Numbered from the stretch's first letter, positions 33,216 through 37,341 are shown. The stretch is DNA of 64,000 nucleotides from Chloroflexota bacterium (GCA_963663275.1 OY760183.1:1632001-1696000), one strand, 5' to 3'. Program-made: numbers and translations. The notes: generated from the letters alone by a model not told the origin.

Positions 33216-34304
33216 TTACCAGACCTCGTCCGTTCTGCGCCAGACCATCTGGGGCCGGACGTTTTCCAGGGGCAGGTCGGCGATCATGCCGTAGTCCTCG
33301 CCGTGGTAGGCGGCGATGATGGCTTCCATCGACTTCTTGGATTCGACGCCGTTGGTCAGCGGCGTCTTATCGTTCACGATGCAGTCGATGAAGTGCTCGC
33401 ACTCACCGGCGAAGTTCTTGCGGGCGCTGAAGGCGTCCATCAGGTCGGCCTTGCTGGGGTCGTCTTCCAGGACGAGCGTGCCTTCCTTGTCGCCCGCCTG
33501 CCAGAGCGTCAGGCGGCGGACGCCGTCGGGATCGTAGCTCAGGATCAACTCGCCGCCTTCCAGGTAGACCGCGAAGCGCAGGTGGCAATCGCTGTGCTTC
33601 GTGCCCCAGGAGGCCACGTAGTTGCCCAGAGCGCCGCTGGCAAAGCGGTAGATGGAGACGGCGGTGTCCTCGCGGCCCAGGGTATCCTTGCGGAAGCGGT
33701 CGTCGCTCAGGCAGGTGGCTTGCACCACGTCGCCTAGGTTCCAGATCATCTGGTCGACGTAATGGCAGCCGTGGCTGAGCAGGCAGCCCATGGGAAAGGT
33801 CTTCCACGACTTGCGCCAGCCGGCCGGATTCGCCATGTTGTCTTCCGTGCGCACCTGCGCCATGTAGGGCTGGCCGTAGGCGCCGCCGGTAACTTGCTCG
33901 TTGAGTTTCTGCCAGATGGGTTGGTAGCGGGTGACGTAGGCCACCATGAGCTTGACGTTCCGCTCGTCGGCCACGCGGATCATCTCGTCGGCGTCTTCCA
34001 GCGTCGTGGCCATGACCTTCTCGGTGAGCACGTGCTTGCCGCGGTGCATGGCGGCCAGGCTCATTTCGGCGTGGAGATGGGGCGGCGTGCAGATGTCCAC
34101 GGCGTCCACCTCATCGAGAATCGACAGGTAGTCCGTCGTCCACTTGGCGCCGGTGCGCTCGGCCTCGGCCTTGGCCTTCTCTTCGTCCACGTCCACGCAG
34201 TAAGCCAACTCGCAGGCTTCGCTCATGCGGGCGTAGGCGTTGATGTGGCCGGTGCTGATGCCGCCGCAACCGATGACGGCGATGCGAATCTTGCTTTCGT
34301 TCAT
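33216..34304 (-). CDS. Gfo/Idh/MocA family oxidoreductase
   Basis: VIGCGGI, VDICTPPHLH, GKHVLTEK, GCHYVD, EDTA. Confidence 0.93.
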   Translation of the reverse strand: MNESKIRIAVIGCGGISTGHINAYARMSEACELAYCVDVDEEKAKAEAERTGAKWTTDYLSILDEVDAVDICTPPHLHAEMSLAAMHRGKHVLTEKVMATTLEDADEMIRVADERNVKLMVAYVTRYQPIWQKLNEQVTGGAYGQPYMAQVRTEDNMANPAGWRKSWKTFPMGCLLSHGCHYVDQMIWNLGDVVQATCLSDDRFRKDTLGREDTAVSIYRFASGALGNYVASWGTKHSDCHLRFAVYLEGGELILSYDPDGVRRLTLWQAGDKEGTLVLEDDPSKADLMDAFSARKNFAGECEHFIDCIVNDKTPLTNGVESKKSMEAIIAAYHGEDYGMIADLPLENVRPQMVWRRTDEVW

Positions 34305-34450
34305 GGCTGTGTGCTCCTCCTGGCGCTGTTGCCTGTTTCTATGCGTGTCATCTGAATGTCATCCGCTGACGAGCGGCGCTCCGCGGCGGGCGGGCGACGC
34401 GCTGCCTCTTTTTCCCTCTCCCCGAGGAGAGCCGACAGGGCTATGTGAGT

Positions 34451-34542
34451 GTCATTCCGAGCGGAGCGCAGCGGAGAGAGGAATCTAGAGCAAGGTCCCG
34501 CAATTCCAGCATCTCTAGATTCCTCGCTCCGCTCGGAATGAC
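34451..34542. repeat. GTCATTCC-family palindromic doublet
   Basis: GTCATTCCGAGCGGAGCGCAGCGGAGAGAGGAATCT...AGATTCCTCGCTCCGCTCGGAATGAC. Confidence 0.9.
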
Positions 34543-34610
34543 ACGTAGAGTTGGATGGAAAGTGCGTACCCCTGTCGGCCTGGGAATAGGGAACGCATGT
34601 AGTCCGTCTT

Positions 34611-34769
34611 TGCGAATTCCCCCTCACCCTAACCCTCTCCCCCGGGGAGAGGGGATGAAGGCTGCTTTCTTTGCGAGTTTCCCCTCACCCTAGCCCTCTC
34701 CCCGGGGAGAGGGAATGGAAACCGTCGCCTTTGGGAGTTCCCCCTCACCCTAACCCTCTCCCTCGGGAG
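34611..34769. repeat. Three tandem ~60-bp units of the CCCTCACCCTAACCCTCTCCC hairpin; third copy interrupted
   Basis: Units at ~34620, 34681, 34741; the missing right arm of the third copy (AGGGAGAGGGG) is at 35947-35957. Confidence 0.88.
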
Positions 34770-34786
34770 GCCTTTGCATAACTCTG

Positions 34787-35797
34787 TCATTCCGGCGAAA
34801 GCCGGAAGGTGGATTCACATTTCAAGTGCAACACCTGGTTGATGAATACTTCGGCTGGCGTTTGGAAGTCAAGACACTTGCGCGGGGTGTGGTTGTAGGC
34901 GTGGACCAGTTGCGCAAAGCGTTGTTGGCTCACCTGTGCCAGGTCGGTCTTGCGCGGCAGCCGGCGCCGCAGGCGGCCGATGGCGTTCTCGATGCCCCCT
35001 TTCTGCCAGGGCGAGTGGGTATCGCAGAAGAAGGTTTGGATGCCCAAGTCATGGAGGCGGTAATGCTGTGCGAACTCCGTGCCATTGTCGAACGTGACGG
35101 TCTGGCTGCACGCTGGGGGCAGCGCGGCGAACAGGTCGTGCAGGATAGTGGCGATCGGCGCTGCCGCCTTGCCGGGCGGTCGCGCGGCCAGCAACAGGCG
35201 CGAGTGGCGCTCGTGCAGGGTCAAGACTGCTTGACCGTAGGTGCGAAAGAGCATCAGGTCCGCCTCCCAGTGGCCGGGCGTTTGGCGGTCTGCCGCCGCC
35301 TGGGGCCGTTCTGCCAGCGGTCGGCGCTGGGCAATGAACGAGGCCGGACTGCCGCCCTTTCGCCCGCGCCAGCCCCGTTTGGACTTGGCGCGCGGCAGGT
35401 AATGCCGCCAGTTACCGTCCTTCGTGCGCGCCTGCTGCCCGTAGATGAAGCGATAGATGGTCTCGTGAGAGACGACCGGCGCGCCGTTCTCCCGCGCCAA
35501 ACGTCCGGATACCTGCTCCGGCGACCAACAATCCCGCAAGTATCCCAACACCACCTCCCGCAACTCGGCATCCCGCTCCAGCTTGCTGCCGCGCCAGCAC
35601 CGCGCCCACGCCTGATCATCGGCATACTTTGGCTCATAGCCTGCCGATTGCGATCCATTTCGTTTCACCTCCCGCGAAATCGTCGATGGCGCGCGACCCA
35701 GAGTTGCAGCGATTTGCCGGTGCGAGGTTCTCGCGGTGAGAAGTCGGGCAATTTCACACCGCTCTTCAATGGTAAGTTGTGTGTATTGTTTTCCCAT
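34787..35797 (-). CDS. IS30-family DDE transposase
   Basis: N-terminal HTH (IAATLGRAPSTISREVKRN), WSPEQ, SHETIY, WEADL, TFDNGTEF, PWQKGGIEN, PRKCL. Confidence 0.96.
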   Translation of the reverse strand: MGKQYTQLTIEERCEIARLLTARTSHRQIAATLGRAPSTISREVKRNGSQSAGYEPKYADDQAWARCWRGSKLERDAELREVVLGYLRDCWSPEQVSGRLARENGAPVVSHETIYRFIYGQQARTKDGNWRHYLPRAKSKRGWRGRKGGSPASFIAQRRPLAERPQAAADRQTPGHWEADLMLFRTYGQAVLTLHERHSRLLLAARPPGKAAAPIATILHDLFAALPPACSQTVTFDNGTEFAQHYRLHDLGIQTFFCDTHSPWQKGGIENAIGRLRRRLPRKTDLAQVSQQRFAQLVHAYNHTPRKCLDFQTPAEVFINQVLHLKCESTFRLSPE

Positions 35798-35841
35798 GGC
35801 AACACCTTAGCAAAGTGTTGCACTTCGTTTGTGAGTCTAGG
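34808..35841 (-). mobile_element. IS30-family insertion sequence (1034 bp, 3-bp target duplication GAA)
   Basis: Imperfect 27-bp IRs sharing TCACA..AAGTGCAACAC at 34808-34834 and 35815-35841; GAA at 34805-34807 and 35842-35844. Confidence 0.9.
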
Positions 35842-35982
35842 GAATCCAGAGCGGTGTCACAACTAAATAAGGCATACCGTCAAGCCATTTCATCCCAATC
35901 CCAGCCTTCCCCCTCAATGGGCAAGGGGTTATGCAAAGGTCTCCCCAGGGAGAGGGGACTAAGAGCTACGAATGCTCCAACG

Positions 35983-37341
35983 TTAGAACAGCCGGCTGAG
36001 CAGGTTGAGCGCGCACTGTTGCATGGCCGGCCCGGTGCCGACGCCGCCCAGGGATGAATAGCCGGCCCAGGTTTCGTAGCCGCCGTGCTCGGTCAGGGCC
36101 TTGTCGGTGCAGACGTAGCCGATGTAGCCGTTGGCCAGGCTCACGACGAACTGCGGCGCGGCGGGCGACTGCTCCTTGATTTCCAGGCCGAACTCCACGA
36201 AGATCTCGCCGGGCAGAGCGACAATCGCCGCCTCGCCCAGCCGCAGGGCCTGCACCGGCGCGGTGTGCGTCAGCGGCATTCGCGCCAGCCGTTGGCATTC
36301 CGCGGCGTACACGTCCGAAAGCTGATGCGGCAGCATCTGGCCGACCACCCAGCTAAACGGCCCGGAATCGTAGTCGGAGTATGTGCCGGCGGGCGCCGCC
36401 AGGATCTTCTCGGCCATGGCGAGGTCTTCTTCCGTGATGGACTTGCGCGTGAACTCGAACGTATCCACCGCCGCGTCCAGCTCGAGTTCGTCGTGCATCT
36501 CCATGAGCTGAATCTCGGTGATCAGGTGGCCGGCGAGCACGTTGGCCATTTTGATGGCCTGCTTGTGGCCGCTGGCGGTCCACTTGCGCTGGCCGCTGTA
36601 GTCATTGTTGTTGATGTCGCCGGAGGTGCCGTTCCAGAGCATGCCGACGCACTGGGGGTCGAGGTAGCGTTGCACCAGCCGGTGGAAGTGCCCGAAGTAG
36701 TCGGCGGAGATGGCCAGGCCGTTATCCGTGCCCACGTAGTGCAGCACGAAATTGGAGACGGCGGCGATTGGCCGTCCGTCCGCCCCTTCCACGTAGAGCA
36801 TGGTGACTTCAGGGTCTTTGGGATAGGTCGGTTTCACCAGGTCGGGACTGCCCGCGCCCGGGTTCATGCGCACGGTGCCGTCGCGCATGTGCCAGCGGCG
36901 GTTGAACGAGATGCGGTCCTCGTGGGCCGTGGCAAAGCCCACGCGGGCGGGTTCCAGGCGCTGGGTAGCGATTTCCACGGCGTCCGCAATCTTGCGCGGT
37001 GCCCACGCGACGTACTCCGCGTCTTCATTGGTGCCGAGCAGATCGGCGATGCCGGCCGCGGTGTGGGTGTGCGTGGCGTTGATCATGACGTTTTCGGCGG
37101 GAATGCCGCAGCGCGCGCCGATGCGCTCCTTGGCGGCGTCCGCCATGCCTTGGGGCATCACGATGAGGTCGCACGTGACGAGAGCCAGCCGCGTAGCGCC
37201 ATTGTCGATGACCAGCGCCTTGGCCAGGAGTTCGTCGTCTACGTCCGCGGCGTAGCGTGTGCGGTGGCCGCCCGGAACCTCGATGCCCAGCCACGGCGTG
37301 ATGTTCGCCGTGGCGGCGCCGGCTTGCAGTGCTGTACTCAC
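35983..37341 (-). CDS. Neutral/alkaline ceramidase N-terminal domain-like hydrolase
   Basis: AKALVI, CDLI, ATHTHTA, FNRR, NFVLH, ISADYFG, GTSGDIN, PGEIF, LANGYIGY; GTG 37341 with AAGGAG RBS. Confidence 0.85.
   Translation of the reverse strand: MSTALQAGAATANITPWLGIEVPGGHRTRYAADVDDELLAKALVIDNGATRLALVTCDLIVMPQGMADAAKERIGARCGIPAENVMINATHTHTAAGIADLLGTNEDAEYVAWAPRKIADAVEIATQRLEPARVGFATAHEDRISFNRRWHMRDGTVRMNPGAGSPDLVKPTYPKDPEVTMLYVEGADGRPIAAVSNFVLHYVGTDNGLAISADYFGHFHRLVQRYLDPQCVGMLWNGTSGDINNNDYSGQRKWTASGHKQAIKMANVLAGHLITEIQLMEMHDELELDAAVDTFEFTRKSITEEDLAMAEKILAAPAGTYSDYDSGPFSWVVGQMLPHQLSDVYAAECQRLARMPLTHTAPVQALRLGEAAIVALPGEIFVEFGLEIKEQSPAAPQFVVSLANGYIGYVCTDKALTEHGGYETWAGYSSLGGVGTGPAMQQCALNLLSRLF

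Follow-up and report, generated by a model that had tools for sequence, protein, structure and literature searches.

Oriented integration of an IS30-family insertion sequence into a host hairpin repeat that supplies the stop codon of its transposase

The window analyzed in this work, i.e., the whole stretch of 64,000 nucleotides from the genome of a Chloroflexota bacterium, contains an insertion sequence whose transposase gene runs past the end of the element into the DNA that received it. This raises two questions: whether the element is integrated at one defined position of its target, and whether the stop codon found there serves to control the expression of the transposase. The first-pass annotation of the window, made from the sequence alone, had proposed a positive answer to both.

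The element and its open-ended transposase gene

The features of the element, at positions counted along the window, are as follows:

34808..35841, minus strand: IS30-family insertion sequence, 1034 bp, with ends placed by comparing its flanks with 161 empty sites and by the other 3-bp duplications of relatives
34808..34834, minus strand: right inverted repeat (IRR), through which the ORF runs (..LHLKCEST); TTGAAA ends 12 nt from the tip
35815..35841, minus strand: left inverted repeat (IRL); TAGACT starts 2 nt from the tip
34805..34807, no strand: target-site duplication, copy 1, GAA on the plus strand and TTC on the minus strand
35842..35844, no strand: target-site duplication, copy 2, placed by flank comparison
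34787..35797, minus strand: transposase ORF, 336 codons plus stop, the last six codons and the stop lying outside the element
34787..34789, minus strand: stop codon TGA (TCA on the plus strand), provided by the hairpin's GGAATGAC flank, 18 nt past the element end

The host genome (one contig, 3.53 Mb) carries nine copies of the 34808-35841 stretch, all 100% identical, and the length of 1034 bp refers to this stretch without the duplicated 3 bp. The terminal inverted repeats are imperfect, as their alignment revealed 21 identical residues within the first 32 positions and an 11-nt perfect core. Taken alone, the 3-bp duplication at this locus could sit one base off (TTC or TCC), and the element ends, N-C-TAGACTC...GAATCCACC, were set by the duplications TAC, TGC, ATC, CCC, TCC, and GAG found around its relatives. 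With the ends so defined, an exact 3-bp duplication was recognized in 93 of 107 distinct sites, and 68 of the 75 distinct element sequences are exactly 1034 bp long.

Members of the IS30 family, as described in ISfinder, are approximately 1.0-1.25 kb in length, have inverted repeats of 20-30 bp, and generate duplications of 2-3 bp. The length, the terminal repeats, and the 3-bp duplication of the element agree with these ranges. The affiliation to the IS30 family, assumed in the first-pass annotation, was borne out by the transposase, which scored 237.5 bits (cut-off 80) over residues 38-307 against the NCBIfam profile NF033563 of this family, the runner-up profile, IS481, reaching 69.8 bits, i.e., under its cut-off of 224. 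The Pfam domain HTH_38 was found at residues 5-47 (56.3 bits), and the score of the Pfam rve domain (31.6 bits) is slightly below the cut-off of 32.6. The catalytic residues, placed by conserved motifs, are D180, D237, and E270, and their spacing of 57 and 33, together with the N-terminal HTH, agrees with the pattern D-(54-61)-D-(33)-E quoted for the IS30 family (PMC2516522). Judging from these protein features, the element is a member of the IS30 family.

The reading frame of the transposase is closed on its upstream side by an in-frame TAA located four codons before the ATG. At the other end, the last bases of the element are read as ...TGT GAA TCC ACC and are followed in the flank by TTC CGG CTT TCG CCG GAA TGA. 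Translation of the ORF confirmed the earlier description of a transposase with no stop inside the element: its C-terminal part, ...LHLKCEST, is encoded within the element, the final FRLSPE comes from the flank, and the frame ends at the TGA at 34787-34789.

The target hairpin and the MITE that carries it

The DNA on both sides of the element was resolved into the following features, none of which is assigned to a strand:

34786..34807: split target hairpin (NTS/SRM-type), larger part, GTCATTCCGGC-GAAA-GCCGGAA
35845..35849: split target hairpin, remainder, TCCAG
34766..34807: short arm of a 142-bp IS5-type MITE, terminal inverted repeat (TIR) at 34766-34782
35842..35944: long arm of the same 142-bp IS5-type MITE, TIR at 35928-35944

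The sequence of 34786-34807 is GTCATTCCGGCGAAAGCCGGAA and that of 35842-35849 is GAATCCAG. According to the first-pass annotation, removal of 34808-35841 together with one GAA restores a palindrome of the GTCATTCC type, and this proved correct: the resulting 27-mer is, in reverse complement, the uninterrupted site CTGGATTCCGGCTTTCGCCGGAATGAC, which is present in the host genome at 161 places with up to four mismatches, 42 of them exact. All nine copies of the element occupy the same base and the same orientation of this repeat (CTGGATTC^CGGC..GCCGGAATGAC), with 3 bp duplicated. In each of them the left flank ends with ...CTGGATTC (...ctggaTTC), the right flank reads TTCCGGCTTTC(G/A)CCGGA(A/G)TGAC, with TTC adjoining the element on both sides, and the TGA is at the identical place. 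The DNA farther out differs among the nine copies, which represent at least seven distinct target copies. In all nine cases the rejoined flanks restore the repeat, as in the type 1 association of Tobes and Pareja, used as the criterion for REP-specific insertion sequences. The sharing of one site by the nine copies is far beyond chance.

Since 161 uninterrupted sites exist, the hairpin is host repeat DNA and not a part of the element. The opposite assumption, namely that the hairpin and its TGA belong to an element longer than 1034 bp or are left behind by it, would account for the same 22 nt following every copy and for the left half of the target, TGGATTC, being the tip region of the right repeat on the other strand. 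We find it hardly credible, as it is refuted by the empty sites, i.e., the uninterrupted hairpins without any IS; moreover, the flanks vary (tcgcc or tcacc; ggaatgac or ggagtgac) around 1034 bp that are identical, elements with the same ends occupy hairpins whose stem and loop change from genome to genome, and this class of repeats is known independently of IS30 elements (PMC11893778). Neither a hairpin carried along to unrelated sites nor random insertion with variable C-termini, the two outcomes that the first-pass annotation had set against its own reading, was seen.

After restoration, the site agrees with the SRM pattern known from the literature, which has 153 matches in the host genome, and is three mismatches away from the NTS consensus; the NTS repeat was described for Neisseria, and an asymmetric flank gives the repeat an orientation (PMC11893778). 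By this match, the target belongs to the NTS/SRM (dRS3-like) class of repeats. When the hairpin is folded, the TTC of the duplication is paired with the GAA directly preceding the TGA. The insertion point and the stop codon would then adjoin at the base of the stem, and either the duplex or the folded hairpin may be the form that is recognized.

Several further searches concerned the host. The cumulative GC skew of the genome, lowest at 1.10 Mb and highest at 2.37 Mb, is weak, and the hairpins and the nine IS copies have no clear replication-strand bias with respect to it. Contigs of four public runs contained neither an IRR-IRL joint nor an empty allele of this locus; the same contigs did contain joints leading from 34807 into paralogous empty MITE copies (..GCCGGAA then TCCAG..). 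The locus is present in 16/16 other genomes of the genus (81-88% identity), and in none of the 13 orthologous loci inspected were the MITE, the hairpin, or the IS found; there is no direct before-and-after pair among them. The spacer between the oxidoreductase and ceramidase-like genes (about 34305-35982) is about 1.7 kb long and is filled by repeats, the MITE, and the IS; in other species of the genus, the corresponding spacer is short and repeat-free at 12 of the 13 orthologous loci. A search with the PF01541 profile found no small GIY-YIG (Ssn) gene in the host genome, its matches being two places that both encode long UvrC-like proteins. Only one Y1 transposase gene (RAYT or IS200-like) is present in this genome, at G000:C1:383050-383358; the hairpin is absent from its flanks, which are arrays of another, GTAG-type repeat (..GTAGCGCGGGGGCTCGTCCCCCGC..).

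The hairpin sits inside the 142-bp MITE in 95 of the 161 empty sites and in 9/9 occupied ones, the remaining 66 empty sites being solo. The MITE has 17-bp terminal repeats, GGAGACCTTTGCATAAC, and 45 of its copies retain both ends at a spacing of 140-149 bp. Its ends are common to a 1241-bp IS5-family element located at G000:C1:1441993-1443233, which encodes a 322-aa transposase (NF033581, 297.6 bits). As most of the host hairpins lie in the MITE, the IS30 element is housed mainly in hairpins that another transposon has multiplied. A preference for MITE-borne over solo hairpins is only suggestive, when the 9/9 occupied sites are set against 95 MITE-type and 66 solo empty ones.

Three tandem units of a different repeat (..CCCTCACCCTAACCCTCTCCCCGGGGAGAGGG..) flank the MITE at 34600-34770. 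Within 34300-36300, no Rfam family reached its gathering score, the top hit being whalefall-1 (24 bits vs 37), located on the neighboring repeat. The idea of a transposase promoter provided by the MITE was dropped: a scan of 34600-36100 for sigma-70-type promoters yielded 0 sites vs 0.4 expected, a hybrid TTGTGA/TAGACT pair scored only 8/12, and other genomes do not have that flank. It is also worth mentioning that the IS copies at G000:C1:2470188-2471221 and G000:C1:2814835-2815868 have a common inner MITE arm that is absent elsewhere in the genome, and differ in the outer MITE parts, which suggests two insertions in sister MITEs, or gene conversion.

The association with the MITE allows for another explanation of the nine contexts, in which the MITE and the IS30 element spread together as a composite, through the IS5-family transposase or recombination, instead of nine targeted insertions of the IS30 element. 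We consider it very improbable, although both IS5-type TIRs are kept at a spacing of 1179 bp in four copies, and there are two pairs of copies with identical inner MITE arms, one arm type occurring only in its two IS-bearing copies. At least seven MITE sequences flank elements that are 100% identical, and in other genomes the same position is used in hairpins outside this MITE. Furthermore, the two copies that share the private arm have different outer MITE parts and an identical IS, therefore the IS arrived after the MITE copies had diverged. Identical MITE arms in all nine copies combined with IS5-type duplications outside the TIRs, as composite spread would leave them, were not seen for most of the copies.

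Generality of the pattern among relatives

Among species-representative genomes, 586 relatives were detected, of which the best 80 by protein similarity were examined, together with 30 from close kin. The best 80 loci, with 68-89% protein identity, come from 30 assemblies (25 of Chloroflexota including Dehalococcoidia, four of Nitrospirales, and one of Binatia). A match was obtained in 22 of 41 related genomes, with the source genome counted in; the kin genomes in this sample are not independent. The loci (L001-L121) yielded 116 complete copies, among which 107 flank pairs are distinct.

In 83 of these 107 distinct sites, which represent relatives 68-100% identical from three phyla, the element occupies the canonical position of the hairpin and is bordered by an exact duplication of 3 bp; in none of the 107 is it reversed. 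The remaining sites include ten with a clean duplication but without the hairpin and 14 without an exact duplication, the latter being mostly one-mismatch hairpins or hybrids of two sites. The TGA at +18 ends the frame in 79 of the 83 canonical sites, and no in-frame stop occurs within the last 20 codons of any of the 75 distinct element sequences. The ORF encodes 336 aa and terminates at a TGA 18 nt outside the element in 66 of the 80 loci. The first-pass annotation had claimed that an element devoid of its own stop inserts into a palindromic repeat at a defined base and orientation, and the counts from the host genome and from the relatives uphold this claim on both points.

The 83 canonical sites have the consensus TGGATTCCcGC.TtCGCgGGAATGACGG, in which the information is high in GGAATGACGG; this consensus represents the Neisseria NTS repeat in reverse complement. 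The sites of the relatives follow ATTCCC-N8-GGGAAT, i.e., the core pattern of dRS3 (PMC3898611; PMC11893778). Hairpins occupied at the same position were also found in other genomes outside the MITE described above, and their stem and loop vary among genomes under the same element ends. Accordingly variable are the tails of the proteins: in the best 120 protein clusters of a large protein collection, 98 of which have a length of 336 aa, the last six residues are the translated hairpin (FPLSRE, FRLSPE, FLPPQE, YRPSPV, FPPARE, and others).

The pattern extends to more distant relatives. Decayed copies with 53-60% identity, from another genus, are located in the same site, and in a library clustered at 50% the ending '..CEST plus six residues' persists down to about 47% identity (P0133, P0196, P0228). 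More distant IS30-family proteins have other endings, e.g., ..VALQT. The stop-less, hairpin-closed architecture is common to the whole lineage. Two relatives with 47-56% identity, P0123 and P0173, end with ..(K/E)(R/C)EST followed by PSLRSG, a six-residue tail that is not the translation of this hairpin; such tails may mark sub-lineages using another repeat family. In the plasmid collection, the nearest relatives are at most 47% identical. The IS30-family relative L124 from plasmid pJE1 of Sphingomonas sp. JE1 (41% identity) has flanks that are mutual inverted repeats at 17 of 21 positions, and it may have a palindromic target of its own.

The ORF of E. coli IS30 (plasmid record) closes at a TGA lying 7 nt inside the IRR, and in two plasmid-borne relatives with 41% identity the stop precedes the right-end repeat. 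As these ORFs end within their own elements, the missing stop is a derived state.

The target-supplied stop codon, its possible role, and related systems

Taken together, the comparisons of element ends, flanks, and empty sites demonstrate, at the level of sequence, site- and orientation-specific integration into a hairpin, with a 3-bp duplication and a stop codon supplied by the target. The element integrates, with a near-absolute specificity for position and orientation, into the arm of an NTS/SRM-class hairpin, with a cut between CTGGATTC and CGGC and duplication of 3 bp, and its frame, having no stop through the right inverted repeat, is closed by the TGA of the GGAATGAC flank after the addition of six hairpin residues. 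This flank, the part of the consensus with the highest information content, is probably a main recognition element of the target. Its recognition would place the element always 18 bp upstream of a TGA, the orientation being set by the asymmetric flanks TGG / GAC, and with the stop assured by the choice of target, the element may have lost the stop and the 3' untranslated end that it once had. If its two ends are similar, a transpososome would be expected to use both orientations, contrary to the insertion in a single orientation observed here. Six of the ten non-hairpin sites with a clean duplication keep the TGA exactly at +18 (chance about 1 in 64), four of these six retaining a remnant of the right arm, so that they are not fully independent evidence for GGAATGAC alone.

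The movement itself would proceed by the copy-out-paste-in route via an IRR-IRL junction, by analogy with IS30, for which a junction promoter is known. In a junction with a 2-3 bp spacer, TTGAAA of the IRR and TAGACT of the IRL would be 16-17 bp apart and could form a promoter. The putative -35 hexamer, TTGAAA ending 12 nt from the right tip, is present in 62 of the 75 distinct elements, and the putative -10 hexamer at the left tip has the form T-A-x-A-x-T in 73 of 75 (TAGACT in 47, TAAACT in 15, TAAATT in seven, and TAGATT in four). Junction promoters have been documented for IS2 (PMC3299598).

A separate question is whether the borrowed stop controls expression. The loss of the stop may have been selected, only insertion into the repeat in the correct orientation yielding a terminated, active transposase, but we regard this as unlikely. 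It is equally doubtful, in our opinion, that copies landing in genes are thereby disabled and the lineage confined to a harmless site. Such adaptive coupling could explain why none of the 75 distinct elements regained a stop, though single-base changes could make one, and it is consistent with the constancy of the TGA at +18 and of the 336-aa length, as well as with the persistence of the trait down to the relatives at about 47% identity. The bases capable of forming a stop lie, however, in the inverted repeat and are constrained anyway, and the sequence of the tail varies freely with the hairpin. The frame also stays open in copies at off-target or mutated sites, where the tails have 4 to 76 residues (the lengths in intact copies being 4, 5, 14, 15, 28, 32, 33, 50, 65, and 76). 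Had the element been inserted in reverse at the sites of this genome, the frame would close after a median of 16 codons, and no stop would be reached within 100 codons in 10 of 67 cases. At the position of the TGA, a stop would be available in 154 of the 161 empty sites. Moreover, dead reversed copies would still be visible and none was found at the 107 sites; as the orientation is fixed already at insertion, termination is not needed to explain it. Finally, the transposase of one good copy could still move misplaced copies.

In the first-pass annotation, correct termination was thought to depend on site-specific insertion, coupling the expression of the transposase to a safe haven. The range of tolerated tails, the early stops in the reverse orientation, and the stops offered by nearly all empty sites do not support this, and the sequence evidence leans against the need for a control device. 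We therefore favor the explanation given above, together with the loss of the stop as a neutral or compaction by-product and not as an expression switch, and as a whole we consider it probable. That the loss is a by-product is argued from the variability and tolerance of the tails, and selection could also maintain the complete loss of the stop.

A more far-reaching proposal, quite unlikely in our estimation, is that the lineage reads the same asymmetric NTS/SRM flank as the Ssn nucleases, and that the flank holding the stop became part of the gene. It is also rather improbable that, as this proposal implies, only a copy at a verified landing site encodes the normal 336-residue enzyme, the sub-lineages diversifying with the hairpin families of their hosts and being able to live on MITE-multiplied hairpins.

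The combination of traits preferred here has partial counterparts in known systems. IS30 of E. coli and IS1655 of N. meningitidis resemble our element in having one transposase with an N-terminal HTH and a DDE core, inverted repeats of approximately 26 bp, a duplication of 2-3 bp, and a tendency to insert at defined hot spots that are nearly palindromic; the ORF of IS30 also reaches the right repeat. In contrast to IS30, the frame described here leaves the element, and the target is a dispersed host hairpin struck off-center and in one orientation. IS30 is known to move by copy-out-paste-in via joined inverted repeats (PMC9333248), and IS1655 was associated with REP sequences in 2/13 and 2/6 copies in a survey (PMC1525189). 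Insertion at the same position of a repeat, which is restored by rejoining the flanks, is shared with the REP-targeting ISPsy8, IS1397 (IS3), ISPpu9, ISPpu10, ISPa11, ISRm19 (IS110), and ISRm22 (IS4). These belong to other transposase families, and the relevant part of the survey documents REP-specific insertion for IS3, IS110, and IS4 elements, lists no IS30-family case, and describes no target-supplied stop (PMC1525189).

Stop codons provided by the target have been encountered in two further families. IS870 of the IS630 family takes its stop from the target. In the IS481-family elements ISLxc2 and ISLxx4, the stop of the transposase lies in the host site, in the duplicated CTAG (PMC2516522). 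In the IS481/IS630 type the stop abuts the element in the duplication, whereas here it lies outside the duplicated 3 bp, at a distance of 18 nt from the element end; the function is similar and the arrangement is different. The repeats themselves are known from Neisseria, where NTS/SRM sequences are the cleavage sites of SsnA and are also exploited by the Nf phage recombinase (PMC11893778). Unlike in Neisseria, many of the repeats found here are borne by an IS5-type MITE, and no small GIY-YIG gene was found in the genome with PF01541. A search limited to the published literature returned no description of this arrangement, and we read it as a variant combining the properties of REP-targeting insertion sequences and of the target-supplied stops of the IS481/IS630 type.

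With this element, the IS30 family gains a clear case of repeat-specific, oriented integration, previously documented for IS3, IS110, and IS4 in the part of the survey cited above (PMC1525189). An insertion sequence is thereby linked to NTS/SRM hairpins, the biology of which was opened recently by the work on Ssn nucleases. The landing site supplies the end of a gene at a distance, which is a matter of concern for annotation, as transposase genes of this kind overrun the ends of their elements. A compact element with a 27-bp, orientation-defined target would also be useful for studying the target choice of DDE transposases.
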